A stretch of 64,000 bases of DNA from Elusimicrobiota bacterium (GTDB lineage: Bacteria; Elusimicrobiota; Elusimicrobia; UBA1565; JACRDR01). The stretch covers positions 1 to 64,000 of the forward strand of contig JBGFSC010000047.1 of NCBI GenBank assembly GCA_041694815.1. The letters are read 5' to 3'. Position numbers and translations under genes: made by a program. Under the pieces are notes generated by a model. That model was not told the DNA's origin. It did no database searches and worked only from the letters and a program-made list of their open reading frames with translations. Below, piece by piece: positions 43,483 through 59,030 of this stretch; positions within the stretch are counted from its first letter, which is position 1, and each line of letters begins with the position of its first letter.

Positions 43483-44373
43483 GTGAGCGCGCTGGAAATT
43501 AGCGCCATCGTCCCGGCCTACAATGAGCAGGGCGCTGTCGGCCCGGTCGTCTCCGGCCTCTCGGAGCTGTTGCGCAAGCATGCCGCGCGCTTCGAGATCA
43601 TCGCCGTCGACGACGGCTCCACCGACTCCACCGCCGAGGCCGCCGAGAAGGCCGGGGCCGTCGTCCTCCGCCATCCCGTCAACCGCGGCTACGGCCGATC
43701 GCTTCTGACCGGCATCGAAAAAGCCCGCTATGAGTGGATACTCATCATCGACGGGGACGGCAGCTACCCCCCCGAGGAGGCCGAGCGCCTGCTCCCCAAG
43801 GCCCCGGCCTGCGACCTTATCATCGGCAAGCGGGAAGGAAAGTTCTTTTGGGGGAACCCCCTTCAGGCCTTCATGCGCTGGTGCTACCTCGCGATGGCGG
43901 GCTTCGTCACGGGCGAGAGCATCCCGGACGCCAATTCGGGGATGCGGCTCTTTCGAAAAAGCTCCTTGGACCGTTCCATGCCCTTCGTCTGCCTCGGCTA
44001 CTCCTTTACCACCACCATGACGCTCTCCTTCATCGCCGCCGGACGCTTCGTCGCCTATGTTCCCATCCGCTTCGTCGAGCGCCGCGGCCACTCGAAGGTC
44101 AAGCCCCCGCGCGACATCCTACGCACGCTGCAGATCATGACGCAGATGCTGCTCTACTACAACCCACTGAAGCTGGCCGTCAGCCTGTCGGCCGGCTCGG
44201 CGGTGGCTGCGCTCGCCATCTTCCTCTTCCTCAGCCCGCGCTGGGGCATCCATTCCGCCTTCTTTGCCGCCTGCGTGCCGGCCTCCCTCGCCGTGCTGAT
44301 CTTTTTGGCCGGCTGCCTGATGGATGCCGTGCGCATGCATTTTCAGGCGCGCAACGGCGGCTACAAGATTTGA
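43483..44373 (+). CDS. GT2 glycosyltransferase with C-terminal TM helices (polyprenyl-P sugar synthase-like)
   Basis: PAYNE, VDDGSTD.T, N.GYG, IDGDG.Y, D.NSG.R; two C-terminal TM helices. Confidence 0.9.
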   Translation: MSALEISAIVPAYNEQGAVGPVVSGLSELLRKHAARFEIIAVDDGSTDSTAEAAEKAGAVVLRHPVNRGYGRSLLTGIEKARYEWILIIDGDGSYPPEEAERLLPKAPACDLIIGKREGKFFWGNPLQAFMRWCYLAMAGFVTGESIPDANSGMRLFRKSSLDRSMPFVCLGYSFTTTMTLSFIAAGRFVAYVPIRFVERRGHSKVKPPRDILRTLQIMTQMLLYYNPLKLAVSLSAGSAVAALAIFLFLSPRWGIHSAFFAACVPASLAVLIFLAGCLMDAVRMHFQARNGGYKI

Positions 44374-46145
44374 TGCACTGGCCGTTCTACTTACTTGCCT
44401 TGGCGATAGCGGCCTTCTCCCTTTTCCTTTCGCCGGAAACGCTGGCCCGACAGTTCAGCCAGGACTCAAGCCTCGCCGGCTATGTCGTCTTCCGGCTGGG
44501 TGTCGCCCGCGCGCTCGGGGGACTGCTCGCCGTCTTACTGGCCGCTTGGGGATCGCTCGACGCGCAGCGTCGGGTTCTCTGGCGGGCCCGCTGGGCGAGC
44601 TGGAGCCGGCACCCCGCGCTGGCCGCGCCGATACTCGCGGCCGCCGCGGCGCTGCTTTGGACCGAAAACCATATTTTCGAGTCGGAAAGCTGCGCGGAGG
44701 GATTTCTGACCGTCGGGGCGTGGCGCATGGCCGCCGGAGATTTTCCCTACCGCGACTTCTTCGTGTTCATCCCGCCGGCCGGGCTCGCCTATCTCGGGGC
44801 CGCCTTCAAGCTGTTCGGGCCGTCGCTGGAGGTGGGCCGCCTCTTCGTCAACCTGATCCCCAAGCTCCTGATCGTGATCGTGCTCTGGCGGCTGGCCAAG
44901 CCGTATTTCTCGCCCTTGACGGCCCTGCTCCTGGGCTGCTTCAGCCTGATGTACACCAGCGGCAACGGCGACAACGCCCAGATCTACAACGGAGCCCTCT
45001 CGATGCTCCCCGCCTTCGCGACGCTGCCCCTGCTCGACCGGTTCGCCCGAAGCGGGAACGCGGCGCTCCTGCGCTGGGCCGGCGCGGCGGCGGCGGCAGC
45101 CGCGCTCGTGCGACAGGATTTCGGGGCCTTGGCCCTCGGCGCGAACCTCTCCTTCCTGCTGTGGCTTCCCGACGGCCGCAAGATCCGGCCACTGGCGAAT
45201 TACCTGCTCCCGTGGGCCGGGGTCCTGGCCGCGGCCGGCCTGATCCTGCTCCTCACGGTTCCCTTCGACCGGCTCTACGAATGCTTCGTCCGCGCGCCGT
45301 ACGAGTACATGCATTACAGCGGGATCGGGCGCCCCGCCTCCTTCCACGGGATTTATCTCATCCCTTTCGCCGGCGTGGATCTCAAGGCCATCTCCTGGAA
45401 GGCGCTCGCCGCCAACGCCTGGATCTACCAGTCGAAGCTGCTGCTCTGCTACATCGCGATACTAGGCGGATCGTGGTTTTTGCTCCGCCGGAAGGACGAG
45501 GCGCGGCGGCCCTCGGTGGCCCTGCTGGCGCTTTGGTGCATCTTCTTCATGGGCATCGTCTATAAGCAGAGCTCCAATATCTACATCGGGGTGGCCCCCG
45601 CCGCCGTCATTCTGGCGGCGCTGCTCATCCGCCGCCCCTTGCCGGCCCTGCTTTTGGCCGCCCACGGCCTGACCCTTCTCTTCTTCCGGCCCTTCTCGGC
45701 GCCGGAGGGCTCGGTCTGGGCCGAGCTGGCCGTGGGTCGCTTCCGCTTCCCCGACCCGCTGGAGGGCCGAGAGATGATACGGCTCATCACACATGCCCAA
45801 TCCATCGTACAGCCCTCCGAGCCCGTCTACATCCACAACAAGGAGCGCATGTGCAGCGACACGCTGCTCTACTTCCTCGTTTCCCGCCGCCCGGCCACCC
45901 GCTACCACGAGTTCCTTAACGCCTACGCCCGCAAGCCCGAGATCCGCTCGCAGATCGAGGCCGAGCTCGAGAGCCGGCGTGCGCCGGCGGTCATCGAGCG
46001 GCTGCTCCCGCCGGACCTGTCGGAGACGCCGGGGGTAAGCATCGCGCAGGCGAAACAGCGCGACTCCTTGGACCAATACATCCTAGACCATTACCGCAGC
46101 GTCGGACGCTATGGCTCCTATATCCTATGGCAAAGACGGCGCTGA
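44373..46145 (+). CDS. Polytopic GT-C-like membrane protein
   Basis: EG......R...G..PYRDFF...PP, RQD.G, LYFL..R.P..RY; TGATG coupling. Confidence 0.75.
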   Translation: MHWPFYLLALAIAAFSLFLSPETLARQFSQDSSLAGYVVFRLGVARALGGLLAVLLAAWGSLDAQRRVLWRARWASWSRHPALAAPILAAAAALLWTENHIFESESCAEGFLTVGAWRMAAGDFPYRDFFVFIPPAGLAYLGAAFKLFGPSLEVGRLFVNLIPKLLIVIVLWRLAKPYFSPLTALLLGCFSLMYTSGNGDNAQIYNGALSMLPAFATLPLLDRFARSGNAALLRWAGAAAAAAALVRQDFGALALGANLSFLLWLPDGRKIRPLANYLLPWAGVLAAAGLILLLTVPFDRLYECFVRAPYEYMHYSGIGRPASFHGIYLIPFAGVDLKAISWKALAANAWIYQSKLLLCYIAILGGSWFLLRRKDEARRPSVALLALWCIFFMGIVYKQSSNIYIGVAPAAVILAALLIRRPLPALLLAAHGLTLLFFRPFSAPEGSVWAELAVGRFRFPDPLEGREMIRLITHAQSIVQPSEPVYIHNKERMCSDTLLYFLVSRRPATRYHEFLNAYARKPEIRSQIEAELESRRAPAVIERLLPPDLSETPGVSIAQAKQRDSLDQYILDHYRSVGRYGSYILWQRRR

Positions 46146-47149
46146 AGCTCCGCTCGTATTTCTCCGGAAAACGCACGCTCGTTACCGGCGGCACCGGCAT
46201 GATCGGCCGCGCCCTCGTGGCACGGCTCGTCGATGCCGGCGCCAAGGTGCGCATCGCCTCGCTCGACGATCCCTCGCGGGCGCATCCCAAGGCCGAATTC
46301 CTCAAGGCGGACCTGACCCGCTTCGAGGAGTGCCGCCGGGCCTGCAAAGGTATCGAGCTGGTCTTCCATCTGGCCGGCGTCAAAGGCTCGCCCTTAATGA
46401 CCTCTAAGAAACCGGCGAGCTTCTTCGTGCCCACCATCTCCTTCAACACGAACATGATGGAGGCAGCGCGGCAATGCGGCGCCGCTAAATACCTCTACAC
46501 GAGCTCGATCGGGGTCTACGCGCCCGCGCCCGTCTTTCGGGAAGACGACGTCTGGAAGACCTTTCCCTCCGACAACGACAAGTTCGCCGGCTGGGCCAAG
46601 CGCATGGGCGAGCTTCAGGCTGATGCCTACCGGATCGAATATGGCTGGCAGGGGGTCGAGATCGTCCGGCCCGCCAATGTCTACGGCCCCTACGACAATT
46701 TCGACCCGGACAACGCGATGGTGATTCCGTCCTTGATCCGCCGCGCGCTCGATGGCGAGGATCCCCTAACGGTCTGGGGGGACGGCTCGACGGTGCGCGA
46801 CTTCATCCATGCCGAGGACGTCGCCCGCGGCATGATGCTGGTGATGGAGAAAGGGCTAGGCAAACCCGTCAATCTCGGCAGCGGCGAGGGCGTGAGCATC
46901 CGGCGCCTGGTGGAGATCATCGTCTCGCGGCTCAAGCGGAAGCCGCGCGTGGTCTGGGACAGCTCCCGGCCCGCCGGCGACCGCACGCGGCTCATGGACA
47001 TCTCGCGCGCCAAGGCCCTGGGGTTTGAGCCGCGCGTGCCCATAGAGGAGGGCGTCGCGCAGGTCATGGACTGGTACGCCGGCAACCGCAAGGCGGCGCT
47101 CAAGCGCTATAACGTCTTCACGGAGAAGTCGCCCATCCCCGAACATTGA
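46127..47149 (+). CDS. NAD-dependent epimerase/reductase (GDP-sugar epimerase-like extended SDR)
   Basis: VTGGTGMIG, HLA, SS.GVY, RP.NVYGP.DNF, VWGDG...RDFIH. Confidence 0.9.
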   Translation: MAKTALKLRSYFSGKRTLVTGGTGMIGRALVARLVDAGAKVRIASLDDPSRAHPKAEFLKADLTRFEECRRACKGIELVFHLAGVKGSPLMTSKKPASFFVPTISFNTNMMEAARQCGAAKYLYTSSIGVYAPAPVFREDDVWKTFPSDNDKFAGWAKRMGELQADAYRIEYGWQGVEIVRPANVYGPYDNFDPDNAMVIPSLIRRALDGEDPLTVWGDGSTVRDFIHAEDVARGMMLVMEKGLGKPVNLGSGEGVSIRRLVEIIVSRLKRKPRVVWDSSRPAGDRTRLMDISRAKALGFEPRVPIEEGVAQVMDWYAGNRKAALKRYNVFTEKSPIPEH

Positions 47150-47907
47150 TGCGACTGCTCGTGACCGGCGCCGGCGGCGGGCTGGGCCGTTTTCTATTCG
47201 AGCGCCTGGGCGGCCTGGGGCTGACCCGGCAAAACGCCGCCTCCCTGCTGCCGCGGCTTAGGCGTTCGGGGGTCGGCACCATCCTCCACTGCGCGGCAAG
47301 CCCCGCGCGGCAGGCTCGGGCCAAGCCCTTGCGCGAGTTCTTGGATGACAACCTTTTCCTGACCCGGCGCCTGCTCGAGCTGCCTCATCGCAAATTCGTC
47401 TATATCTCGACGGTGGACGTCTACCCCAAGAGCGGCTCCAGGCACGCGGAGTCGGATCCGATACGCCCCGACAAGGTCGAGGGGCTCTATGCCATGACGA
47501 AATGGCTTTCGGAACGGCTGGTCCAAGACCGCGGCCGCGGCCCGCTCATCCTGCGCCCAAGCTCGCTGTTAGGCGAGCACGCGCGGCCGAACAGCCTTTC
47601 GCGCCTGCTCGATGGCGGGCTCGTCCGCCTAAGCGCCTCTGGCGATTCGCGCTTCAACTGCGTTCGACACGAGGACCTGCTCGAATTCCTGCGCATCGCG
47701 CTGCGCCGGGACCTCAGGGGGATATACAATCTGGCCTCCTCCTCGGATATTACGCTTCTCCGGACGGCTCGAAGCCTCGGCGCCAAGGCCATTTTCGGAC
47801 GCCATCGTTATCGGGTCCCCCGAGTCGACAACCGCAAGGCCGCCGCGCTATGGCCGGCCTTCCAACTCGGCTCGCTCGAGACCCTGCGCCGGAGCAAAAA
47901 AGTATAA
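47149..47907 (+). CDS. Short NAD-dependent epimerase/dehydratase
   Basis: VTGAGGGLG, ISTVDVY, YAMTK. Confidence 0.8.
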   Translation: MRLLVTGAGGGLGRFLFERLGGLGLTRQNAASLLPRLRRSGVGTILHCAASPARQARAKPLREFLDDNLFLTRRLLELPHRKFVYISTVDVYPKSGSRHAESDPIRPDKVEGLYAMTKWLSERLVQDRGRGPLILRPSSLLGEHARPNSLSRLLDGGLVRLSASGDSRFNCVRHEDLLEFLRIALRRDLRGIYNLASSSDITLLRTARSLGAKAIFGRHRYRVPRVDNRKAAALWPAFQLGSLETLRRSKKV

Positions 47908-47917
47908 TGAAAACGTC

Positions 47918-48583
47918 ATGAAAACGACATTGCTCATGCCGATTTTAAACGAGATCCACGGCATGAGGGCGGTGATGCCGCGCGTGCGCCGGGAATGGGT
48001 CGACGAGATGCTCGTCATCGACGGCGGCTCCACCGACGGCAGCCTCGAATACGCCCAAGAGCTCGGCTGCCGCGTGCTGCGCCAGAAGACCCCGGGCATC
48101 ACCTACGCCTACCAGGAGGGTGTGGCCGCGGCGTCGGGGGAGGTGATCGTGGCCTTCTCCCCGGACGGAAACTCGGTTCCCGAGCGTATCCCGGAGCTGC
48201 TCGCCAAGATGCGCGAGGGCTACGACATGGTGATCGTCTCGCGCTACTTGGACGGCGCCAAGAGCGAGGACGATGACTGTGTCACCGCCATTGGCAACCG
48301 GATATTCACGGCCGCCATCAATTGGACCTTCGGAGGCCGCTACACCGATTGCTTGGTGATGTTCCGCGCCTTCCGCAAGGACGCGGTGGGCGATTTCCCC
48401 TCCGGCATTCCCCGGGCGGGACTAGAGCCATTGCTGGCGATCCGCTGCGCTAAGGCCAAGAGGCGGGTCGCCGAAATACCAGGCGACGAACCCAAGCGCA
48501 TCGGCGGGCAGCGGAAGATGAGCCCCGTGCTCAACGGCATCGACATCATCCGCCTCATCGCGCGGGAGTATTTTTCGAGATGA
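47918..48583 (+). CDS. GT2 glycosyltransferase
   Basis: P.LNE, IDGGSTDGS, SPDG, V.VSRY, E..G.E..R.GG.RK. Confidence 0.88.
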   Translation: MKTTLLMPILNEIHGMRAVMPRVRREWVDEMLVIDGGSTDGSLEYAQELGCRVLRQKTPGITYAYQEGVAAASGEVIVAFSPDGNSVPERIPELLAKMREGYDMVIVSRYLDGAKSEDDDCVTAIGNRIFTAAINWTFGGRYTDCLVMFRAFRKDAVGDFPSGIPRAGLEPLLAIRCAKAKRRVAEIPGDEPKRIGGQRKMSPVLNGIDIIRLIAREYFSR

Positions 48584-49548
48584 GCTCTAAACCCTGGCTG
48601 CTCATCACGGGCGCCGCCGGCTTCATCGGCAGGAATCTCCTGGAGCGCTTCGCCAAGAACCCAGCCTACTCGGTCGCGGCCGTCTGGCATCAGTCGCCGC
48701 GGCCCCGGGAGCTCATCGGCGACCCCCGAATACGCTGGATACGCGCCGACCTGACGCAGCCGGCGCAGGTACGCGATGCCGTCTCGGGCGCGGACATCGT
48801 GCTGCACGCCGCCGCCACTACCTCGGGCTCCAAGGATATCGTCGAGCGGCCCAGCCGGCACGTCACCGACAACGCCGTGATGAACTCCCTGTTGTTTCGG
48901 GCTTGCCACGAGCAGAAGGTCAAGCACGCGGTGTTCTTTAGCTGCAGCGTCATGTACTCCCCGCAGGACAAGCCGGTACGCGAGAGCGATTTCCGCTACG
49001 AGATCACCGCGCCTTATTTCGGCGTCGGCTGGACGAAGGTGTACTCGGAGAAGATGTGCGAGTTCTATTCCAGGCTCGGCACGACGCGCTTTACGGCGAT
49101 CCGGCATTCGAATATCTACGGCCCTCACGATAAATACGACTTGGAGAAGTCCCATGTCTTCGGCGCCACGCTCGCCAAGGTGATGTCGGCCGAGCGCGAA
49201 ATCGTCGTGTGGGGAGAAGGGACGGAGGAGCGCGACCTGCTGCATGTCGACGACCTGGCCGACTTCGTTGAGAAACTCGTCACCCTCCAGAAGGAGCCCT
49301 TCGAGCTCATCAATGTGGGTTCGGGCCGCTCTGTCGCCGTTCGCGACCTAGCCGCCAAGATCATCGAGCTCTCGGGACGCAAGCTCGAGATGCGCTTCGA
49401 CCGCTCCAAGCCGAGCATTCCCTTCAAGCTGGCCTTGGATTCGGGGCGCGCCAAGAAGGTCTACGGCTGGTCACCGTCGGTGTCCCTAGAGGAGGGCATT
49501 CGCCGCAGCCTCCAGTGGTACCGGGAGCATGTGGGGGCCGCCGCATGA
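48580..49548 (+). CDS. GDP-fucose-synthase/ColC-like extended SDR
   Basis: ITGAAGFIG, SNIYGP.D.YD...SHV, VWG.G...RD.LHV.D. Confidence 0.88.
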   Translation: MSSKPWLLITGAAGFIGRNLLERFAKNPAYSVAAVWHQSPRPRELIGDPRIRWIRADLTQPAQVRDAVSGADIVLHAAATTSGSKDIVERPSRHVTDNAVMNSLLFRACHEQKVKHAVFFSCSVMYSPQDKPVRESDFRYEITAPYFGVGWTKVYSEKMCEFYSRLGTTRFTAIRHSNIYGPHDKYDLEKSHVFGATLAKVMSAEREIVVWGEGTEERDLLHVDDLADFVEKLVTLQKEPFELINVGSGRSVAVRDLAAKIIELSGRKLEMRFDRSKPSIPFKLALDSGRAKKVYGWSPSVSLEEGIRRSLQWYREHVGAAA

Positions 49549-50522
49549 GCGCCAAGGCCGACCGCGAGCTGCTCGGCAAGCTCTACCGGCTCATGCTCGG
49601 CATACGGCTCGCCGAGGAAAAGATCGTCGAGCTCTACCCCACCGACAAGATCCAGAGCCCGATACACCTGTCCATCGGCCAGGAGGCGGTCTCGGCAGGC
49701 CTCGCCTTGGCGATGGGCGAGGCGGACAGGCTCTACGGGACCTACCGGGGCCACGGCCCCTATATCGCGCTCGGGGGCGATCTCAAGAAGCTGTTCGCGG
49801 AGCTCTACGGCAAGGACACGGGCTGCGCCCGCGGCAAGGGAGGCTCCATGCACCTGGTAGCTCCCGAGGCTGGGCTCATGGGCTGCTCGGCCATCGTCGC
49901 GAGCACCATCCCCATCGCCACCGGCCACGCCCTGGCCTCCCAGATGCGCGGCCGGCGCTACGCGGTGCTCTCCCTCTTCGGCGACGGCGGCGTCGACGAA
50001 GGCGTATTCTTCGAGAGCGTCAACTTCGCCGTGCTCAAGAACCTCCCCATTGTCTACGTGCTCGAGAACAACCGCTACGCGATCCATTCGACGGTTCCGG
50101 ACCGGCACAAGCAGACCGAGCTTTTCCGCATCGCCGAGGGGCTGGGGCTTCGGGGAGAGCGCTTCGACGGCAACGACGCCTCGAATGTCTACGCCACGGC
50201 CAAGCGGGCGATCGACGCGGTGCGCGCGGGCTCGGTCCCGGCGCTGCTCGAGTACACGACCTACCGCTGGAGGGAGCATGTGGGCTCGCAGGAGGACTAT
50301 GCGGCCGCCTACCGCGCCCCCGGCGAACGCGAGGAGGCGCTGGCCCACGACCCGCTCCAGATAACCCGGAAGGCCTTGATCGAGGCGGGCGCCAGCCCGG
50401 TAGAGCTCGACGGGTGGCGCTCGCAGGTTCTCCAAGAAGTCGAGGAGGCCGTGCGCTTCGCCGAGCAAAGCCCCAGCCCCGCGCCCGGCCGACTTCTGGC
50501 CGACGTGTACGCCTCCCGATGA
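49545..50522 (+). CDS. TPP-dependent dehydrogenase E1 alpha-like subunit
   Basis: HLSIGQEA, TYRGH, GKGGSMH, TPP motif GDG-x-ENN, TYRW..H. Confidence 0.93.
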   Translation: MSAKADRELLGKLYRLMLGIRLAEEKIVELYPTDKIQSPIHLSIGQEAVSAGLALAMGEADRLYGTYRGHGPYIALGGDLKKLFAELYGKDTGCARGKGGSMHLVAPEAGLMGCSAIVASTIPIATGHALASQMRGRRYAVLSLFGDGGVDEGVFFESVNFAVLKNLPIVYVLENNRYAIHSTVPDRHKQTELFRIAEGLGLRGERFDGNDASNVYATAKRAIDAVRAGSVPALLEYTTYRWREHVGSQEDYAAAYRAPGEREEALAHDPLQITRKALIEAGASPVELDGWRSQVLQEVEEAVRFAEQSPSPAPGRLLADVYASR

Positions 50523-51550
50523 AAACCCTCAACTACGGCCAGGCCATCCACCGCGCGCTTGAGTTCGCCATGGAGAAGGACCCTTCCGTCTTCGTCATGG
50601 GCATCGGCGTCGACGATCACAAGGCCGTCTTCGGCACCACCAAGGGCCTGCTCGAGAAATTCGGCAGGGAACGCGTATTCGACACGCCGATCTCCGAGGG
50701 GGCCATGACCGGCGTCGCCGTCGGGGCGGCCCTAGGCGGCATGCGCCCGGTGCATATCCACATCCGCTCGGATTTCCTATACCTGGCCATGGACCAATTG
50801 CTCAATATGGCCGCCAAGTGGCGCTCGATGTTCGGAGGTGCCGCGAGCGTGCCGATCGTCGTGCGCGCCGTCATCGGGCGGAGCTGGGGCCAGGGGGCGC
50901 AGCACTCGCAGAGCCTGCAGTCGCTCATCGCGCATGTGCCAGGGATCAAGGTCGGCATGCCCACGACGCCGGCCGACGCACAACAGATGCTGCTGGCGGC
51001 CATCGCCGACCCCAACCCCGTCGTGCTCTTCGAGCATCGACTGCTCTACGACATCGTCGGCGAATTGCCCGAGCCGGATTGGGCGGTGGAATTTAAGCGC
51101 GCCGTCGTCCGCCGCCCGGGCAAGGACCTCACCATCGTCGCCAACTCCTACATGGCCGTGGAGGCTCTCAAGGCCGCGGAGTTCCTCCAGGAGCACGGCA
51201 TCGAGGCCGAAATCGTCGACCCGGTCACCGTGGTGCCGCTGGATGAGGCCGTTATCCTCGGCTCGATCCGCAAGACGGGGCGGCTCATCGTCATCGACAC
51301 TAGCTGGACCTTCTGTGGCGTGAGCGCGGAGATTGCCGCCCTAGCCGCCGAAAAAGCCTTCTCGAGCTTGAAGCAGCCGGTTTTAAGGCTCGGCATGCAG
51401 CCAACCCCTTGCCCGGTGAGCAAGCCGCTCGAGAACCTCTTCTACCCCAACGCCGGCACCATCGCCGACGCCGCCTTCAAGATGATGGAGCGCCGCTCGC
51501 CCGAGCTGCGCGCCCCGGTTCTGACCCACGCCTTCAAGGGGCCGTTCTGA
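50519..51550 (+). CDS. TPP-dependent dehydrogenase E1 beta-like subunit
   Basis: ERVFDTPISE, G.RPV, DQL.N.AAK, GAQHSQ, NPV..FEH, G.D.TIV. Confidence 0.93.
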   Translation: MKTLNYGQAIHRALEFAMEKDPSVFVMGIGVDDHKAVFGTTKGLLEKFGRERVFDTPISEGAMTGVAVGAALGGMRPVHIHIRSDFLYLAMDQLLNMAAKWRSMFGGAASVPIVVRAVIGRSWGQGAQHSQSLQSLIAHVPGIKVGMPTTPADAQQMLLAAIADPNPVVLFEHRLLYDIVGELPEPDWAVEFKRAVVRRPGKDLTIVANSYMAVEALKAAEFLQEHGIEAEIVDPVTVVPLDEAVILGSIRKTGRLIVIDTSWTFCGVSAEIAALAAEKAFSSLKQPVLRLGMQPTPCPVSKPLENLFYPNAGTIADAAFKMMERRSPELRAPVLTHAFKGPF

Positions 51551-52716
51551 TGATCCGCTATTACCTCGCCGAGGACACGATCGACCGCAAGGACGTCGAC
51601 CGACTCGTCGACTGGCTCAAGACATACCCGAGGCTCACCCAGGGGCCGCTGGTCCGGCAATTCGAGGAGAAATGGAGCCGCTGGCTTGGGGCCCCGCGCT
51701 CGGTGTTCTGCAACTCCGGGTCCTCGGCCAACCTGCTGATGTACTATGCCCTGCTGCTCTCGGGCAGGCTCAAGAACCGCGAGGTGGTCGTGCCCTCCGT
51801 CGGCTGGGGCACCTCCATCGCACCGGCGATACAGTTCGGTTTCGAGCCGCTGATCTGCGAGGCGGACAAGGACACCTTCGGCCTCGACTTGAACCATCTC
51901 GAGGCGCTGCTTAAAAAGCACAAGCCCTCCTCCGTCCTGCTGGTTCAGGTGTTGGGCGTCCCGCACAAGATGAAGGAGCTTATGGCCCTGAAGAAGAAAT
52001 ACAAGTTCTTCCTGATGGAGGACGCCTGTGCCGCGATCGGGGCCGCTTATCAAGGCCGCCATGTCGGCACCTTCGGCGACATGGCGAGCTTCTCATTCTA
52101 TTTCGGGCATCAGATGTCGACGATCGAAGGCGGCATGGTCTCGACCTCGGACAAGAAATTCGCCGACCTGCTGCGCTTGACTCGCGCCCACGGCTGGAGC
52201 AAGGACTTAGACGCCGAGGCTCATCAGGCCTTGGTCAAAAAGCATCGCATCGATGATTTCCATACCCCATTCGTCTTCTACGAGCCTGGCTTCAATCTCC
52301 GATCGACCGATCTTAATGCCTTCCTGGGCCTGGGCCAGGTCGACAAGCTCGCCTGGATCATCGAGACCAGGCAGCGCAACCATGCGATTTACTCCCGGTT
52401 GCTGGGCGCGCGCTTCTACACGCAGAAGCCGGAACCGGGGTCTACGGTGTGCAGCATTTCTTTCGGCATGCTGGCCGACGACGCCAAGCAGCGCCGAGCC
52501 ATTGTGAGCGCCCTGGTGGAAAATGGGGTGGAGACGCGAATATTTTCCGCGGGCAACCTGGGCCTGCACCCCTTCTGGGTCAAGCGATTCGGCAAGGCGA
52601 GTTTTCCCATGGCCGATCGCATCCATCACACGGGACTATTTTTGCCCAATAATCCGTCGCTTTCTACGGATACGGTCGAAAGCATCGCCAAGATTGTCCT
52701 GGAGGCGGCCCGATGA
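51550..52716 (+). CDS. ColD-type PLP-dependent NDP-4-keto-6-deoxysugar 3-dehydratase (DegT family)
   Basis: NSGSSANL, EDAC, SFYFGHQMSTIEGG with His at the Schiff-base Lys position, RAHGW, GFNLR.TD. Confidence 0.85.
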   Translation: MIRYYLAEDTIDRKDVDRLVDWLKTYPRLTQGPLVRQFEEKWSRWLGAPRSVFCNSGSSANLLMYYALLLSGRLKNREVVVPSVGWGTSIAPAIQFGFEPLICEADKDTFGLDLNHLEALLKKHKPSSVLLVQVLGVPHKMKELMALKKKYKFFLMEDACAAIGAAYQGRHVGTFGDMASFSFYFGHQMSTIEGGMVSTSDKKFADLLRLTRAHGWSKDLDAEAHQALVKKHRIDDFHTPFVFYEPGFNLRSTDLNAFLGLGQVDKLAWIIETRQRNHAIYSRLLGARFYTQKPEPGSTVCSISFGMLADDAKQRRAIVSALVENGVETRIFSAGNLGLHPFWVKRFGKASFPMADRIHHTGLFLPNNPSLSTDTVESIAKIVLEAAR

Positions 52717-53696
52717 CCCCCACGATCCGGCGGGTGTTGATCACGGGCATCACCGGCTCCGGCGGCAGTTACCTCGCCGATCACATACTCGAGGAGCATC
52801 CAAAGGTGGAGCTGCACGGCATTACGCGCTGGCATACCTCCTCGAGCCATCGCGATCTCTTCGGCGGCCGGGCGATACTGCATGAATGCGATCTTACCGA
52901 TCTGCTCTCCGTGCTCAACGCCGTGGAGAAATCCAAGCCGGACGCCATCTTCCATCTGGCGGCGCACGCCAACGTGCGCGCCTCCTTCGACACCCCGGGC
53001 GCGGTTCTCACGAACAACATACTCGGGACCAGCAATCTCTTCGAGGCCGTGCGCCGGTGCAAGCTGAACCCGCTGATCCAGCTCTGCAGCACCTCCGAGG
53101 TCTACGGGCAGGTGGATCCCACGGACCTGCCCATTAAAGAAGACGCGCCTCTGCGACCCATTAGCCCCTATGCGGTTTCGAAGACCGCCCAGGACCTTTT
53201 GGGCTGGGGCTATTTCAAGAGCTACGGCATGCGCATCATCCGCACGCGGATGTTCACCTATTTCAATCCCCGGCGCACCGATCTGTTCGCCACCGCCTTC
53301 GCGCGGCAGATCGCCTGGATCGAGCAGGGGCTAGCCAAGGAATTGCGCCACGGGAACCTGAACTCGGTGAGGACCTTCATCGACGTACGCGACGCGGTGC
53401 GCGCCTATTGGGAAGCGACCCTGCATTGCGTCCCCGGCGAGGCCTACAATATCGGCGGCCGCACGACGATGACGGTGGGCGACTGCCTCGAACGCCTCAA
53501 GGCCCTAGCCAAGGTGAAGATCCCGACTCGGCAGGACCCGGCGCTGATGCGCCCGGCCGACGTGACCCTGCAGATCCCCTGCGTGGACAAATTCGTCAAG
53601 GCCACCGGCTGGCAGCCCCGATACGATTTTGACGACAGCCTGCGGCATCTCTTGGAGCACTGGCGCGCCGAGGCGAGGAGGGAGAAAGCGGCATGA
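52713..53696 (+). CDS. GDP-mannose/GDP-heptose 4,6-dehydratase-like SDR
   Basis: LITGITG..GSYLA, HLAA...V..SF, STSEVYG, SPYAVSK, GNL.S.R.F.DVRD. Confidence 0.88.
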   Translation: MTPTIRRVLITGITGSGGSYLADHILEEHPKVELHGITRWHTSSSHRDLFGGRAILHECDLTDLLSVLNAVEKSKPDAIFHLAAHANVRASFDTPGAVLTNNILGTSNLFEAVRRCKLNPLIQLCSTSEVYGQVDPTDLPIKEDAPLRPISPYAVSKTAQDLLGWGYFKSYGMRIIRTRMFTYFNPRRTDLFATAFARQIAWIEQGLAKELRHGNLNSVRTFIDVRDAVRAYWEATLHCVPGEAYNIGGRTTMTVGDCLERLKALAKVKIPTRQDPALMRPADVTLQIPCVDKFVKATGWQPRYDFDDSLRHLLEHWRAEARREKAA

Positions 53697-54634
53697 TCCA
53701 ACGGGTGCTGGTCACGGGAGGCGCGGGCTATATCGGCTCGGTGCTGGTCCCGCTGCTTTTGGAGCGGGGCTTTAAGGTCACGGTGCTCGATAATTTCCTC
53801 TACGGGCAAAACAGCCTGCTCGACTGCTGCGGGCGCGAGGGATTCGAGATCGTGCGCGGCGATTGCCGCGACGAGCGCCTTCTCTCCGAGCAGCTCAGGA
53901 ACGCGGATATACTCATTCCCCTGGCCGCGCTGGTGGGCGTCCCGGCCTGCGACCGGGACCCCGTCGCCGCCGAGACCACCAACCTGGGGGCCGTGCGCTC
54001 ACTCTGCAAGCTCGCCTCCAAATCGCAGCGGATGCTGTTCCCGGTAACCAACAGCGGCTATGGGATCGGCGTGAAGGGCAAGGCCTGCACCGAAGAAAGC
54101 CCTCTCAAGCCGCTCTCGCTCTACGGCCGCACCAAGGTGCAGGCCGAGGAGGCGGTGCTCTCTCGCGGCAATTCCATCGCCTTCCGCCTGGCCACCGCCT
54201 TCGGCGCCTCGCCGCGCATGCGCATGGACCTGCTCGTCAACGATTTCGTCCACCGCGCCGTCAGCGACCGCGCCGTCGTGGTGTTCGAGGGGCATTTTCA
54301 GCGCAATTACATCCATGTCCGCGACATTGCCCGAGTCTTTTTGCACGGCATCGAGCGCTTCGACTCGATGCAGGGCAGGCCCTACAATGTCGGCCTCGAG
54401 GACGCCAATCTCTCCAAGCTCGAGCTCTGCGCCATGATCCAAAAAATCGTGCCGCAATTCGTGTTCGTCGAGGCCCCGGTGGGCGAGGACCCGGACAAGC
54501 GCGATTACATCGTCTCCAACGCGCGGCTTTTGTCGACGGGGTTTAAACCCGAGTGGAGCTTGGAGCGGGGGATACGGGAACTGGTTAAGGCGTATAAGAT
54601 ACTCAAGGGTTTTAATCCTTATGCCAACGCATAA
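53693..54634 (+). CDS. NAD-dependent epimerase/dehydratase
   Basis: VTGGAGYIGS, LAALVG.PAC, YGRTK, RLAT.FG.SPRMR.DLLVN. Confidence 0.9.
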   Translation: MIQRVLVTGGAGYIGSVLVPLLLERGFKVTVLDNFLYGQNSLLDCCGREGFEIVRGDCRDERLLSEQLRNADILIPLAALVGVPACDRDPVAAETTNLGAVRSLCKLASKSQRMLFPVTNSGYGIGVKGKACTEESPLKPLSLYGRTKVQAEEAVLSRGNSIAFRLATAFGASPRMRMDLLVNDFVHRAVSDRAVVVFEGHFQRNYIHVRDIARVFLHGIERFDSMQGRPYNVGLEDANLSKLELCAMIQKIVPQFVFVEAPVGEDPDKRDYIVSNARLLSTGFKPEWSLERGIRELVKAYKILKGFNPYANA

Positions 54635-54643
54635 ACGGCGGCC

Positions 54644-55654
54644 ATGATCATCAGCCGAACCCCCTTCCGCATGTCCTTCTTCGGCGGCGGGACCGATTAC
54701 CCCGCCTGGTTCCGCGAGAACGGCGGCTGCGTGCTGTCGACGACGATCAACAAGTACTGCTACATTACCTGTCGCTACCTGCCCCCCTTCTTCGACTACC
54801 GCAGCCGCATCCTCTACTCCAAGGTCGAGACGGTGCAGGACAACGGAGACATCGAGCACCCGGCGGTGCGCGCCATCCTCAAGCATTTAGACATTAGCCA
54901 GGGAGTCGAAATCCATCATGACGGAGATCTTCCCGCCCGCACGGGACTGGGCTCCTCCTCTTCCTTCGCGGTCGGCCTGCTGCACGCCCTGCGCGCCATG
55001 CGGCATCAGCCCCGCGATAAGATGCAATTGGCGCAGGAGGCCATACACATCGAGCAGGAGATCCTCCAGGAAAACGTCGGCTGCCAGGACCAGGTGATCG
55101 CCGCCGTAGGAGGCCTCAATCGCATCGATTTCCATCCCAACGGAAAGATCGATGTCGACCCCGTCACCATCAGCCCCGCGCGGCTCTGCGAACTACAGGA
55201 GCACCTCCTGCTCTATTTCACCGGCTTTTCCCGCATCGCCTCCCTGATCGTGAAGGAGCAGCTCAACCGCATACAGGACACGAAGGCCCAGCTCAAGCGC
55301 ATGCAGGCCATGGTGCGCGAGTCGATCGACATACTCAGCGGCGGCGACCTCGCGGATTTCGGCCGGCTGCTCGATGAGGGTTGGTCACTCAAGCGCACGC
55401 TGAGCTCGAAGGTCTCCTCGCCCTTCATTGACGAGATTTACGAGAACGCCAAGGCCTGCGGCGCCCTGGGCGGAAAGCTGCTTGGAGCCGGGGGAGGTGG
55501 CTTCATGCTGATCTTCGCCCGCCCTCAGGACCAGCCGAAGATCAAGGAGCGCCTCAAGAAGCTCATGCGCATCCCTTTCCAGATCGAAGACGACGGAAGC
55601 CGCATCATCCTCTACCAACCGGACGCGCAAGACGGCGCACTTCCTGAATCTTGA
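54644..55654 (+). CDS. hddA: GHMP sugar kinase, HddA-like (D-glycero-alpha-D-manno-heptose-7-phosphate kinase)
   Basis: RTP.R.SF.GGGTD, P...GLGSSS, G.QDQ..AA.GG, GGKLLGAGGGG. Confidence 0.85.
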   Translation: MIISRTPFRMSFFGGGTDYPAWFRENGGCVLSTTINKYCYITCRYLPPFFDYRSRILYSKVETVQDNGDIEHPAVRAILKHLDISQGVEIHHDGDLPARTGLGSSSSFAVGLLHALRAMRHQPRDKMQLAQEAIHIEQEILQENVGCQDQVIAAVGGLNRIDFHPNGKIDVDPVTISPARLCELQEHLLLYFTGFSRIASLIVKEQLNRIQDTKAQLKRMQAMVRESIDILSGGDLADFGRLLDEGWSLKRTLSSKVSSPFIDEIYENAKACGALGGKLLGAGGGGFMLIFARPQDQPKIKERLKKLMRIPFQIEDDGSRIILYQPDAQDGALPES

Positions 55655-56337
55655 TGGTGGATGCCGTTATCCTCTGCGGCGGGCTCGGCACGCGGCTGCG
55701 CGAGGCGGTGCCGGACCGGCCCAAGCCCATGGCCGACGTGGGCGGCAGGCCGTTTTTGGAGCTGTTGGTCGACTGGGTCGCCGGTCAGGGCTTTAATCGG
55801 ATCATACTCTGCGTGGGCCATCGAGCGGACATGGTGCGGGCGCATTTTCGCTCGGACTCGCGCCGCGAGATCCTATTCTCCGAGGAAAGGGAGCCTCTAG
55901 GGACCGGAGGGGCCCTGCGCCTGTGCCGTCCGCATGGCGCGAGCGATCCTTTCCTGGTACTCAACGGCGATTCTTTCTGCGACATAGACCTTCACGCGAT
56001 GCTTCAGTTCCACGCGGAGAAGAAGGCCGCTGCCACGGTGGCGGCGGTGCGCCCGGACGGGCGCGAGGATGGGGGCAATATCGCGGCGGGCACGGACATG
56101 CGGGTTTCGGCCTTCGCCGAGAAAAAGAAAACCGAAGGCGCCGCTTGGCTCAACGCCGGGGTCTACGCCTTGGGCTCCCGCGTATGGGACTTCATTCCTC
56201 CAGGGCGCAGCTCCTTAGAAACGGACGTGCTGCCCAAGATGCTCCTTGCCGGCGTCTACGTGTTCGCCACGAGCGCGACCCTCTTCGATATCGGCACTCC
56301 CGCGCGGCTGGAGGCCTTCCGCCGCTTGAGGTCATGA
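55654..56337 (+). CDS. hddC: Sugar-1-phosphate nucleotidyltransferase, HddC-like
   Basis: ILCGGLGTRL, PKPMA..GRPFL, E..PLGTGGA, LNGDS, NAGVY, DIGTP. Confidence 0.8.
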   Translation: MVDAVILCGGLGTRLREAVPDRPKPMADVGGRPFLELLVDWVAGQGFNRIILCVGHRADMVRAHFRSDSRREILFSEEREPLGTGGALRLCRPHGASDPFLVLNGDSFCDIDLHAMLQFHAEKKAAATVAAVRPDGREDGGNIAAGTDMRVSAFAEKKKTEGAAWLNAGVYALGSRVWDFIPPGRSSLETDVLPKMLLAGVYVFATSATLFDIGTPARLEAFRRLRS

Positions 56338-58247
56338 ACCTACTCTTCATCTGCCACGAGCTTCCACCCATCGGGGGAGGCTCTGGCAACGCGGCCCTGG
56401 CCTTGGCCCGCGAGCTTGCCGTGGAGCACTCCGTGGTGCTGCTCACTTCCGGCTATCGCGAGTTGCCGGCTCAAGAACGGCATGGACAACTCCGCGTGCT
56501 GCGCTTGCCATCACCCAGGCGTCGCGTCGACGGAGCCAGCCCCATTGAACTCGTCGCCTTCGCGGCCCTCGCCGTCCGGGAGGCCTCGCGCCTGCATCGC
56601 GAACGACCCTTCGACGCCGCCGTCGCGGTGCACGCCACCGCGGCCGCATGGGCGGCGTGGCTCTTGCGCAAGCGGCGCGGCATTCCCTACGTGCTCGCTT
56701 TGAGGGGTGCCGACGTGCCAGGCTTCTTCCCGGAAATGTACGGCTGGATGCACCGAGCATCCTCCTGGCTCACTCGGCGATGTTGGGGCAGCGCCGCGGC
56801 GCTGGTGGCCAACAGCGAGGGCTTAAAACGGCTGGCCGAACGCACCGCCGCGCCCTTGGGACGCGCCGTTAAGCTTATCGAAAACGGCGTCGACGCGGAT
56901 TTCTTCACGCCCGCGGCTTCCATGCCCCAGGGGCAGGGCCTGTTCGTCGGAAGGCTGAGCCGGCAGAAGGGCCTCGAGCCGTTCTTCGAAGCGCTGCGCC
57001 TCGGCGCGCCGAGGCTGCGCGGCCGGCTGCGCCTTGAGATCGTAGGCGTAGGGGAATTGGCAAGCACATTAAGTCGCCTGGCCGAGGACGGCTTGGCCGA
57101 CATCGTCTCTTTTTCCCCATGGATGGACAAGGAAGCGCTGCGTGAAAGATACCGGGCATCCTCCTTTTTCGTTTTTCCGTCGTTGGAGGAAGGCATGTCC
57201 AACGCCCTGCTCGAGGCGATGGCCTGCGGGCTCCCGGTACTGGCCGCCGACGTCTACGGCAACAAGGGCTTGGTCGAAAACGGGGTCAACGGCTTCCTCA
57301 TCCCGCCTGATGATCCGGCCGCCTGGGCCGAAGCCCTCTACCGCATGGCGGCCCTGGAACCCACCGCCCTTAAGTCCATGGGCCAAAAAAGCCGCCAGAA
57401 GGCGCTGGGCAAGAGTTGGGGAGAGGCGGCGCGCCGCTATGAATCACTGCTGCCCCATCCCGCCGCGTGGACCCCCGAGCGCGTCGCGCGTTTCTTCGAC
57501 CTGTATCAGGCCCAGGGCGGGCTAGAGGATAACTATTTCGGGAGGCAGAGGGGAGCTGCCCTGCTGCGTTTCGTGCTCCGCCGAAGCCTCCTGCCGCAGC
57601 CGGCGCTCGATGTCGGCTGCGGTCCCGGCTATTTTCTCGAGTATCTGGTCGCCGCGCGGATCCGCTGCGCCGGCGCCGACCTGTCGGCGGCCTCCGTCGA
57701 GCGGGCGAACCGGCGGCTGGGCGGAAATCCATATTTCCTGGGGGCGCACCGGATGGGCGATGGCTTTGCGCTCCCCTTCGAGGACGGGGCCTTCCAAAGC
57801 GCCTTCCTGATGGAGACGGCCGAGCATCTGCTGCCGGAGTCGATTGCGGCCGTGTTCGGCGAGCTCCGCCGGGTATTGGCGCCGGGTGGCCGCCTGGTGG
57901 TCACTACGCCTTACCGCGAGGACCTGCGGGATTCCTCTTTGCTATGCCCGCATTGCGGCGCCACCTTCCACCAGATCCAGCATGTCTCTTCCTTCGACGA
58001 ACGCAACCTGCCGGAGCTGCTCGAGAGCCACGGCTTTTCCTGCGAGCTGGCCGAGGCACCAGCGCTTCTTCCAGACTGGCGCATCTGGCTTCGGGCGCAG
58101 GGTGGACTCGGGGCATCGGCGGCGGCATGCCCCGAATGCGGGAAGGCCTTCGCGCCGCCCGCTCCGGGCCTCCTAAAACGGGCGCGGATGCTGCTTCGGG
58201 AGCTGCGCCATCTAGTCTGCGTGGCGCACCGGGCGCCTGGCAAGTAG
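56334..58247 (+). CDS. GT4 glycosyltransferase fused to a class I SAM methyltransferase
   Basis: N-terminal PP.GGG, NGVD, FVGRL..QKG, EGMSNALLEAMA.G; C-terminal LDVGCGPG, LPF.D..F, EH, LAPGG.L..TTP; two CxxC motifs. Confidence 0.88.
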   Translation: MNLLFICHELPPIGGGSGNAALALARELAVEHSVVLLTSGYRELPAQERHGQLRVLRLPSPRRRVDGASPIELVAFAALAVREASRLHRERPFDAAVAVHATAAAWAAWLLRKRRGIPYVLALRGADVPGFFPEMYGWMHRASSWLTRRCWGSAAALVANSEGLKRLAERTAAPLGRAVKLIENGVDADFFTPAASMPQGQGLFVGRLSRQKGLEPFFEALRLGAPRLRGRLRLEIVGVGELASTLSRLAEDGLADIVSFSPWMDKEALRERYRASSFFVFPSLEEGMSNALLEAMACGLPVLAADVYGNKGLVENGVNGFLIPPDDPAAWAEALYRMAALEPTALKSMGQKSRQKALGKSWGEAARRYESLLPHPAAWTPERVARFFDLYQAQGGLEDNYFGRQRGAALLRFVLRRSLLPQPALDVGCGPGYFLEYLVAARIRCAGADLSAASVERANRRLGGNPYFLGAHRMGDGFALPFEDGAFQSAFLMETAEHLLPESIAAVFGELRRVLAPGGRLVVTTPYREDLRDSSLLCPHCGATFHQIQHVSSFDERNLPELLESHGFSCELAEAPALLPDWRIWLRAQGGLGASAAACPECGKAFAPPAPGLLKRARMLLRELRHLVCVAHRAPGK

Positions 58248-59030
58248 GACCGCAGACGTAACTTTCAAAGACTCGTCCTTTGGGTTAAAGTCTGTGCTCA
58301 AATAGGGCCGAATCCGCTCGAAGGCCTCTTCGTCGCTGGCACGCTCAAGGACTTCCACCACGAATCCTTCAGACGACAGCAGGCGCAAGTGATCTGAAAG
58401 CCGCCAGCGAGGGAGATCGCCGGGATCGAGCCAACGACCCCAATGTTTCCGGGAGAACTGAAGAAAATGATAGGGATATTTGAAGAAGTGATCGCGATAG
58501 TCGACGATGTGAAGCATGAAGCCGTCTAACTTAAGCACCCGCCGAAGCTCGACGAAGAGGTCTCGAGGATCCCTCACGTGCTCGAGCACCGAATGAGAGA
58601 GCGCGACATCTATGCTTTCGCTGGCAATGGCGCGAATGGAGTCCAGCCGGCGCACTTTAGAACCCAACGCCGACTCCGTCAAGCCATGACGCTCACACGC
58701 TTTCGAAAGCAGGCTCCGGTCCAGGCGCGCGTCTAATTCGGCCGTGGGCTCTAGCCCCCATACGGCTAGAGCGTCGCGCGCTGCCAATTCGTAGGCGGTG
58801 CCATTGGCATGCCCCGCCCCGATTTCCAGCACGCTCAGGCCTCGGAACGACAATCCGGCAGCAGTCAGGTGCTTCTCGTAGAGCGAAACCACCTCTTCCG
58901 GGACGCTCTCACCGAGGCTGGGCTCATAATAAGGCAGAAACGAGGAGAGCCTGCGGACGGCATGCTCGCTCAAAAGAAACTTGCGAACCAGTCGGAGAGC
59001 GATATACTCGGCATTTTCCACGATTCTCAC
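58212..59030 (-). CDS. Class I SAM-dependent methyltransferase
   Basis: VLEIGAG, SID...S.SVLEHV, RVLK..G...H.VD..DH; GTGA coupling at 59030. Confidence 0.85.
   Translation of the reverse strand: MRIVENAEYIALRLVRKFLLSEHAVRRLSSFLPYYEPSLGESVPEEVVSLYEKHLTAAGLSFRGLSVLEIGAGHANGTAYELAARDALAVWGLEPTAELDARLDRSLLSKACERHGLTESALGSKVRRLDSIRAIASESIDVALSHSVLEHVRDPRDLFVELRRVLKLDGFMLHIVDYRDHFFKYPYHFLQFSRKHWGRWLDPGDLPRWRLSDHLRLLSSEGFVVEVLERASDEEAFERIRPYLSTDFNPKDESLKVTSAVLLARRPVRHAD

Follow-up and report, generated by a model that had tools for sequence, protein, structure and literature searches.

A candidate operon for a C-branched heptose with a stand-alone thiamine-dependent E1 pair in an uncultured Elusimicrobiota bacterium

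What does a pair of genes resembling the E1 alpha and beta subunits of pyruvate dehydrogenase (PDH) do in the middle of a sugar operon? The question is raised by a stretch of 64,000 nucleotides (nt), hereafter the window, at positions 1 to 64,000 of contig JBGFSC010000047.1 in the assembly GCA_041694815.1 of an Elusimicrobiota bacterium, where 14 genes on the forward strand form a coupled operon at 43483-58247. Judging from sequences and gene neighbourhoods, we propose with a probability of roughly 55% that this operon serves to synthesise a C-branched deoxy-heptose and to export it to the cell envelope. The operon is part of the 148.5-kb contig C40 of a 2.77-Mb assembly (63% G+C, 97.8% complete), and the host DnaE is nearest to those of Elusimicrobiota metagenome-assembled genomes (MAGs; 64, 63, 53, 52 and 51% identity).

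The initial annotation had flagged the stretch 46127-56337, inside this operon, as a tight cluster of HddA-, HddC- and Gmd-like genes, a DegT-family gene, the E1 alpha/beta pair and four more short-chain dehydrogenases/reductases (SDRs). All of these were found on the forward strand, the four SDRs being those named here SDR1, SDR2, SDR3 and SDR5 (Table 1). The gene list stood while its extent did not: the operon is longer, and a glycosyltransferase (GT) of family GT2 within the cassette (GT2b) as well as the GT2/GT-C lipid-carrier route had been overlooked. Between GT-C and HddC, neighbouring genes share 1-19 nt at nine of the 11 junctions and are 9-10 nt apart at the remaining two, and the genes GT2a and GT-C upstream of the flagged stretch and the GT4-methyltransferase downstream of it are all translationally coupled to the operon. 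Scans for promoters (5 sites, 2.7 expected) and terminators (17 sites, 13.3 expected) did not rise above the level of shuffled sequence.

The DegT-family protein aligns over its full length to ColD, with FGHQMST placed on YSHHIAT in the HMMER alignment to 2gms, and its His187 (codon CAT, 52108-52110) sits at the column where the H188N and H188K mutant chains of ColD differ. The replacement of the Schiff-base Lys by His, remarked on at the outset, holds in this alignment, and a ColD-type 3-deoxygenation by the encoded pyridoxamine 5'-phosphate (PMP) enzyme is supported as its predicted reaction. Among the loci retrieved in the searches with E1 beta and with SDR5 homologues, the ColD column holds His in 58 of 71 DegT segments and Lys in 12, one being gapped; the Lys-type segments belong mostly to loci of a basal E1 subgroup that lacks the C-terminal tail described below.

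Searching with the ColD-like protein gave 25 loci (31-75% identity, and at least 61% in all but one) from Elusimicrobiota, Patescibacteria, Nanoarchaeota, Deltaproteobacteria, KSB1 and other groups. A homologue of SDR5 was present near ColD in 24 of the 25, usually adjacent to it; the one locus without it is on a contig that stops 163 bp past the ColD match. An E1 pair occurred in nine of these loci and a split transketolase, often directly upstream of ColD, in 11, so that one or both were found in 18 (the high-GC loci L001, L002 and L022 were typed by tblastn segments instead of open reading frames, ORFs). The same cassette, whose recurrence had been left to a synteny search, is thus found elsewhere; L002, from another Elusimicrobiota, has the window's gene order all the way from GT2b to HddA, with identities of 64-76%. 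Carriers of cassettes of this type include Elusimicrobiota, Patescibacteria, Nanoarchaeota, Nitrospirota, Planctomycetota, Verrucomicrobiota and Alphaproteobacteria, among the last the culturable genus Azospirillum, where plasmid AZO_p6 of Azospirillum lipoferum 4B carries the core genes for the SDR5-like protein, E1 alpha, E1 beta and the DegT enzyme.

Over all fetched loci, 49 rows held a ColD of the window type (at least 50% identity; four rows are contigs fetched twice), and their surroundings were typed within 8 kb. A thiamine pair without a cupin epimerase accompanied 32 of them and a cupin without a thiamine pair five, while none had both. The predominance of His among the DegT segments and this mutual exclusion of thiamine pair and cupin support a functional link between the dehydratase and the thiamine enzyme, as far as gene content can indicate one. 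Among the cupin-bearing ColD loci, L021 holds a divergent E1-like pair and L005, from a Minisyncoccia MAG, a short E1_dh ORF. In the latter (L005:13228-15604) a malic-enzyme gene adjoins this E1_dh-like ORF of 203 amino acids (aa) and an unassigned ORF of 178 aa; the E1_dh-like ORF may be what is left of a thiamine enzyme, either minimal or decayed, that has its pyruvate supplied locally.

The E1 pair of the window is intact in its catalytic parts. E1 alpha has the GDG-x26-NN motif at residues 146-176 (49980-50072), which binds thiamine diphosphate, and E1 beta has Glu60, at the place of the cofactor-activating Glu, and His129, both of them invariant in 10 cassette sequences and aligned to 1w85_B. 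Both active-site His residues of E1 are conserved and so do not separate a carboligase from a dehydrogenase. The partners of a dehydrogenase are absent, as had been noted for the window: contig C40 has no E2 (PF00198) or E3 (PF02852), and in the genome three PF00198 genes lie on C36 and C44 and the single PF02852 gene on C44, where it adjoins an E2 gene. The other E1 genes of the genome are on C21 and C44, and identity to the housekeeping pair on C21 is 36% for beta and 32% for alpha. Against the PDH E1 models both subunits scored under the cut-offs (Table 1).

We collected the 80 nearest relatives of E1 beta, one genome per species, and typed their neighbours by tblastn within 7 kb. Usable sequences numbered 77 (L141 and L167 were dropped for an internal stop and L177 as too short), of which 52 had heptose-pathway genes in this range, eight had E2 and 17 had neither, many of these on short contigs. 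These 77 relatives were joined by nine cassette copies, the C21 copy and that of the window in a maximum-likelihood tree of 88 rows. One branch, supported at 100% in the Shimodaira-Hasegawa-like approximate likelihood-ratio test (SH-aLRT), separated 73 rows including the window (62 in sugar context, 11 without context and none with E2) from 15 rows containing all nine E2-linked copies, the genome's own among them. The phylogeny proposed in the initial annotation, run here against the E2-linked copies, therefore set the pair apart from every one of them. Taken with the low identity to C21 and the heptose-gene neighbours, the split supports the dedicated, non-PDH role first predicted for the pair.

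E1 beta also ends in a C-terminal extension of about 20 residues (51488-51547) that closes with F-x-G-P-F-stop, FKGPF in the window. The ending is present in all nine cassettes of the first set, in 46 of the 52 relatives with sugar context and in 10 of the 17 without context, and in none of the eight with E2, and it could serve as an annotation marker. In Geobacillus the C-terminus of E1 beta contacts the binding domain of E2; we infer that the extension fits a loss of E2 docking. A further E1 alpha/beta pair, on plasmid pSGRIFU1 of Streptomyces griseofuscus (L280, record 137096-139142), is about 50% identical to the window's beta, and the tail region is missing from the match. It adjoins genes for a condensation domain, an acyl carrier protein, a phosphopantetheinyl transferase and a ketosynthase, not sugar genes, and looks like a system for C2 loading onto a carrier protein; considered for the tree as an actinomycete sugar-branching E1, it was discarded as it is not in a sugar cluster.

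The constant partner of the ColD-like enzyme bears on the identity of the sugar. SDR5 is about 63% identical to PDB entry 6VO6, whose title reads only 'putative sugar-nucleotide epimerase/dehydratase' and which we take to be Cj1427 of Campylobacter jejuni, the guanosine diphosphate (GDP)-heptose C4-dehydrogenase. An HddA-like gene flanks 56 of the 80 nearest SDR5 homologues, with an HddC-like gene directly downstream in most; the scan for these homologues, which reached relatives of at least 65% identity only, returned no Campylobacter counterpart. This partner would be a putative C4-dehydrogenase of the Cj1427 type and not a 4,6-dehydratase, so that the core genes may yield a 3-deoxy-4-keto-heptose with its 6-hydroxyl retained.

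The best solved relatives of the HddA-like kinase are the heptose kinases 3k85, 4usk/4usm and 4n3o, well ahead of fucokinase and galactokinase in score. Two gmhA genes occur in the genome, together with one gmhB fused to a second hddC, all below the equivalog cut-offs: one gmhA, on contig C24, adjoins an rfaE domain-II gene of the ADP-heptose route, and the other belongs to a second, self-contained heptose module on the minus strand of C40 (C40:73051-76640), about 10 kb to the right of the window (Table 1). On the kinase relatives, the match of SDR5 to 6vo6 and the gmhA/gmhB genes, the predicted substrate is a heptose and not a hexose, which upholds the heptose origin first suggested and is supported. 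The second module suggests a separate polyprenyl-phosphate-heptose branch and may also provide the operon with its GmhA and GmhB. In a Deltaproteobacteria MAG (L006:1806-3082), genes for a GmhA-like SIS protein and a transaldolase/FSA-family protein head a related cassette, as if supplying sedoheptulose-7-phosphate locally.

From these parts the following route can be drawn up. GmhA, encoded elsewhere, would give D-glycero-D-manno-heptose-7-phosphate, to be phosphorylated by the HddA-like kinase and dephosphorylated by the GmhB that is fused to the second HddC 10 kb away. SDR5 would then oxidise C4 of the activated sugar; alternatively, the DmhA/Rmd-like SDR would lead to the 6-deoxy-4-keto form. 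The His-type PMP enzyme would take off the 3-hydroxyl to yield GDP-3-deoxy- (or 3,6-dideoxy-) 4-keto-heptose. E1 alpha/beta would decarboxylate pyruvate or a related 2-oxo acid and, following the logic of YerE or AviB1/AviB2, pass the C2 unit to the C4 ketone to give a 4-C-acetyl tertiary alcohol, which SDR1, SDR2, SDR3 and perhaps the Rmd-like enzyme may reduce or epimerise. A GT2 would finally load the sugar on polyprenyl phosphate, GT-C would pass it to an envelope acceptor outside the membrane, and the GT4-methyltransferase would act on the same glycan. The route first sketched for the locus keeps its heptose and its 3-deoxygenation, its possible GDP-hexose start is disfavoured, and its 4-keto-6-deoxy intermediate becomes one of two options, since O6 may stay. 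Its 'Gmd-like dehydratase' does have TSE (residues 127-129) and YAVSK (153-157); these TSE and YxxxK motifs fail to tell a 4,6-dehydratase from Rmd, and with 189 bits to Rmd (2pk3), 182 to the GDP-heptose 4,6-dehydratase 7us5 and at most 113 to true GDP-mannose dehydratases the protein is about as near to a reductase, which leaves heptose 4,6-dehydratase and C4-reductase as its two possible roles.

Thiamine enzymes that use ketone acceptors fall into three superfamilies, the YerE-type decarboxylases, the E1 alpha/beta-type alpha-KADH2 enzymes and the split transketolases, according to passages of PMC12247030, which describe the latter two as 'mainly involved in specialized natural products'. 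The E1 pair is read as a carboligase because a 3-deoxy-4-keto sugar is the acceptor of YerE in yersiniose synthesis by the account in excerpts of PMC9306805, and because E1 pairs and split transketolases alternate next to ColD, a pattern that mirrors two of the ketone-using families. The proposed order of 4-keto sugar, His-type PMP 3-deoxygenation, thiamine-dependent addition to the C4 ketone, ketoreduction and cell-surface glycan is that of the yersiniose, erwiniose and caryophyllose route as the same excerpts and PMC12247030 present it. Unlike YerE, which is a single-chain enzyme resembling acetohydroxyacid synthase and acts on a cytidine diphosphate (CDP)-hexose, the window has an E1 alpha/beta heteromer and GDP-heptose genes, and a CDP-glucose pathway found no match in the window above weak SDR cross-hits.

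Another analogue, likened here by description only, is the set of two-subunit E1 enzymes without E2 or E3 that act in nucleotide-sugar pathways on a keto-sugar, such as AviB1/AviB2, Pau11/Pau12, the aldgamycin pair and KbDH. For pairs of the AviB1/AviB2 type the addition of a pyruvate-derived C2 unit that leaves a tertiary alcohol is proposed or shown in PMC4753412 and PMC12247030, and KbDH-alpha/beta joins pyruvate to ketone sugar analogues in vitro in the latter. Unlike these antibiotic pairs (as characterised in PMC12247030), the genes of the window stand among GDP-heptose and envelope glycosylation genes, a context repeated in many phyla outside the actinomycetes. In its upstream half the operon resembles a member of the C. 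jejuni heptose pathway but lacks the epimerase. On comparative-genomic grounds the predicted sugar branching is well supported. Tentatively, at odds a shade short of even, the operon could stand for a widespread pathway in which envelope sugars are branched by a distinct E1 alpha/beta clade or by split transketolases, the FxGPF tail having exchanged E2 docking for nucleotide-sugar handling. The products would then form a new family of envelope sugars, exported by polyprenyl-phosphate and GT-C transferases.

Several points weigh against the branched-heptose proposal. Only analogy fixes which carbon accepts the unit, which acid donates it and in what order the steps run. In 12 of the 49 rows with a ColD of the window type, the surrounding 8 kb hold no thiamine pair and no cupin either, so the link is not obligatory, several of these being on short contigs or having the pair further off. 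The E1-beta tree came from a quick search with an arbitrary root and three rows dropped, and the assignment of the code 6VO6 to Cj1427 is our own assumption. Neither gmhA nor gmhB is in the operon itself. SDR1 has Phe153, Ile and Tyr189 at the columns of the catalytic Tyr, Cys and His of Fcl in the HMMER alignment to 8du0. Every NCBIfam match in the operon is below its equivalog cut-off (the HddA-, HddC- and Gmd-like proteins with 146 of 600, 114 of 300 and 133 of 415 bits), and the names used here hold at family level only.

The operon might instead make an unbranched 3-deoxy- or 3,6-dideoxy-heptose like that of C. jejuni HS:5, the E1 pair being an accessory that forms no C-C bond on the sugar and supplies, for example, an acyl or aldehyde unit for another decoration. 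Such a route is proven: in PMC10440746 and PMC10680097, Cj1427 and the pyridoxal phosphate-dependent C3-dehydratase of HS:5 give GDP-3-deoxy-4-keto-heptose in vitro, and a 4,6-dehydratase with the C3-dehydratase gives GDP-3,6-dideoxy-4-keto-heptose. The window resembles it in the HddA- and HddC-like activation genes, present at family level, in the putative Cj1427-like SDR5, the DmhA/Rmd-like SDR and the His-type C3-dehydratase, and its Fcl- and Rmd-like reductases would suit it. Moreover, five related loci have ColD and SDR5 without a close thiamine pair, and RmlC-like cupin epimerases adjoin their ColD gene in the arrangement known from C. jejuni. The window differs from C. jejuni in having no cupin C3/C5 epimerase on its contig (the only PF00908 match of the genome is on C20), in an E1 pair set between the SDRs and the dehydratase, in a GT2/GT-C delivery in place of a capsule polymerase, and in its uncultured Elusimicrobiota host. 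The E1 genes are held in the operon by overlaps of 4 nt with SDR3 and 1 nt with ColD, their clade is tied to heptose genes across many phyla, and no row combined a thiamine pair with a cupin; an unbranched product is accordingly judged unlikely.

A C-C bond might also be formed on the sugar at a place other than C4 or with a unit other than acetyl, either by chain extension at an oxidised C6 or C7 aldehyde to a linear or later cyclised nonose, or by transfer of a longer or hydroxylated acyl group as in ErwE and MMAR_2332. Transketolases normally use aldehyde acceptors, and a split transketolase replaces the E1 pair in 11 of the 25 ColD loci. Several SDRs of the operon have no assigned role, B12 radical-SAM genes occur in related loci, and relatives of YerE take C4-C8 hydroxy-2-oxo acids, not pyruvate (parts of PMC9306805). 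On the other side, the close pairing with a His-type 3-dehydratase points to a 3-deoxy-4-ketone as acceptor, as in yersiniose, the window has no aldolase for a longer donor, and split transketolases are themselves proposed to hydroxyacetylate keto-sugars (PMC12247030, in extract). The miharamycin and amipurimycin split transketolases, for which such hydroxyacetyl branching is proposed, are comparable to those that take the place of the E1 pair by ColD in the cassette relatives; unlike their clusters, the window has no transketolase pair. In the same extract Streptomycetes are the source of all 13 split transketolases predicted to use ketones, unlike those of the cassettes, which belong to Patescibacteria, Elusimicrobiota, KSB1 and others. 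We consider this class of products improbable.

A start from GDP-mannose towards a colitose-like 3,6-dideoxy-hexose, branched or not, through Gmd, ColD and ColC is rated as highly improbable. Among solved structures the DegT enzyme is indeed closest to ColD, the operon has a Gmd-family enzyme and two Fcl/ColC-like SDRs, and the HddC-like protein scores slightly better on the mannose-1-phosphate guanylyltransferase model than on the HddC model (135 against 114 bits). Yet the kinase groups with heptose kinases, SDR5 follows 6VO6, the Gmd-family enzyme is nearer to the heptose dehydratase and Rmd than to true Gmd, and GmhA, GmhB or transaldolase genes occur in related loci; the GDP-mannose entry, the true Gmd and the ColC with Fcl catalytic residues that mark a colitose pathway were not found. 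That the E1 pair is simply part of a housekeeping 2-oxo-acid dehydrogenase with its lipoyl E2 encoded elsewhere is hardly credible, for despite its full catalytic motifs, its best NCBIfam matches among PDH E1 models and the three E2 genes of the genome, it scores under the PDH cut-offs, branches apart from all E2-linked copies, has a tail absent from the E2-linked relatives and recurs in sugar loci of Nanoarchaeota and Patescibacteria, while the genome's own E1 sets adjoin E2 and E3 genes. The operon therefore belongs to none of the YerE-type, colitose and PDH systems.

According to PMC12247030, sugars are so far documented to be C-branched by thiamine enzymes in two settings, as YerE-type in a few lipopolysaccharides and as E1- or transketolase-type in actinomycete antibiotics, so that the latter kinds of branching are already known there. 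If the branched-heptose proposal is true, a separate E1 clade branches GDP-heptose for cell-surface glycans across much of the uncultured microbial world, its carriers including ultra-small bacteria and archaea without PDH complexes. It would mean a new sugar class and ketone-accepting carboligases for chiral tertiary alcohols, and a marker for hundreds of 'PDH E1' genes that are not PDH. The pathway is testable in the culturable Azospirillum strains that carry the core genes, and the Raushel laboratory is said to have made every upstream substrate enzymatically. Our literature search found no paper joining GDP-heptose with a thiamine enzyme; the survey by Krug et al. 2024, which reportedly covered about 120 alpha-KADH2 and 13 transketolase clusters and may already list such clusters, was outside what was searched.

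The delivery genes agree with an envelope destination. GT2a, with its hydrophobic C-terminal stretch, is coupled to the PMT_2-type GT-C as in the ArnC/ArnT and GtrB/GtrC systems, all these matches being below the family cut-offs, and GT2b is a second, AglJ/Dpm-like GT2 within the cassette, homologues of which (46-67% identity) recur in many related cassettes. The surroundings of the operon are of diderm type, with OEP, PorV-like, CsgG and GT9 genes.

Table 1. Genes of the operon, of the second heptose module on contig C40 and further PMT_2-type GT-C paralogues; L037 is a fetched locus in which C40:65982-69979 is L037:1982-5979.
Feature	Position	Strand	Evidence and remarks
GT2a, GtrB/ArnC-like glycosyltransferase, hydrophobic C-terminal tail	43483..44373	+	PF00535 94.5 bits; stop overlaps GT-C start
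GT-C membrane glycosyltransferase (PMT_2/ArnT-like)	44373..46145	+	PF13231 32.3 bits; probable start ATG 44373; 19-nt overlap with SDR1 start; one of the PMT_2-type GT-C paralogues
SDR1, Fcl-like extended SDR	46127..47149	+	PF01370 169.7 bits; NF047922 154 bits (cut-off 500); FAGWAK, GPYDNF
SDR2, SDR-fold, 253 aa	47146..47907	+	PF01370 53.9 bits; GAGGGLG, YAMTK
GT2b, AglJ/dolichyl-phosphate-hexose-transferase-like GT2, 221 aa	47918..48583	+	PF00535 64.4 bits; TIGR04182 98 and NF041391 74 bits, both below cut-off
SDR3, Fcl-like extended SDR	48580..49548	+	PF01370 158.3 bits; NF047922 144 bits (cut-off 500); YFGVGWTK, GPHDKY
E1 alpha, thiamine-diphosphate PP domain	49545..50522	+	PF00676 207 bits; TIGR03182 295 bits (cut-off 394); aligned to human PDH E1 alpha
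E1 beta, Pyr and C-terminal domains	50519..51550	+	PF02779, PF02780; NF006667 306.5 bits (cut-off 321)
ColD-like PMP-dependent sugar 3-dehydratase (DegT family), predicted	51550..52716	+	2gms E=9.5e-48; PF01041 233 bits
Gmd-family SDR, DmhA/Rmd subgroup	52713..53696	+	2pk3 189 bits; 7us5 182 bits; TSE, YAVSK
SDR5, putative GDP-heptose C4-dehydrogenase	53693..54634	+	6vo6/6vo8 E=6.6e-115, residues 2-312
HddA-like GHMP kinase (heptose-7-phosphate kinase family)	54644..55654	+	PF00288, PF08544; NF049969 146 bits (cut-off 600)
HddC-like sugar-1-phosphate nucleotidyl(guanylyl)transferase	55654..56337	+	PF00483 94 bits; NF052502 135 and NF049965 114 bits, both below cut-off
GT4 glycosyltransferase fused to class I methyltransferase	56334..58247	+	PF13692 112, PF00534 105, PF08241 66 bits; ATG overlaps HddC stop
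HddC-GmhB fusion, 426 aa	C40:75360-76640	-	second heptose module
Second HddA-like kinase	C40:74392-75399	-	second heptose module; about 42% identical to the operon's kinase
GmhA-like SIS protein	C40:73776-74735	-	second heptose module
AglJ-like GT2 with N-terminal extension	C40:73051-74289	-	second heptose module
PMT_2-type GT-C paralogue	39498-41498	-	
PMT_2-type GT-C paralogue	59027-60250	-	
PMT_2-type GT-C paralogue	63115-63984	-	
PMT_2-type GT-C paralogue	L037:17477-18934	-	

A span of about 45 kb contains several GT2 genes and no fewer than five PMT_2-type GT-C paralogues (Table 1), an unusually dense island of lipid-carrier-dependent envelope glycosylation. Within the operon, SDR3 retains GPHD but has the odd YFGVGWTK where YxxxK is expected.

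Related cassettes carry genes that the operon of the window lacks. Genes for B12-binding radical-SAM proteins, as many as four in one locus, are repeatedly found in L001, L003, L004, L006, L007, L009, L010, L013, L020, L024 and many of L119-L278, and NUDIX, DJ-1/PfpI, PhyH and UPF0047 genes are also found in such cassettes. With these radical-SAM and other genes, other lineages would seem to C-methylate or otherwise tailor the same sugar further. Beyond the window, at C40:65982-69979, the minus strand encodes four tandem trypsin-like serine peptidases followed by a Por_Secre_tail protein of the kind sorted by the type IX secretion system.

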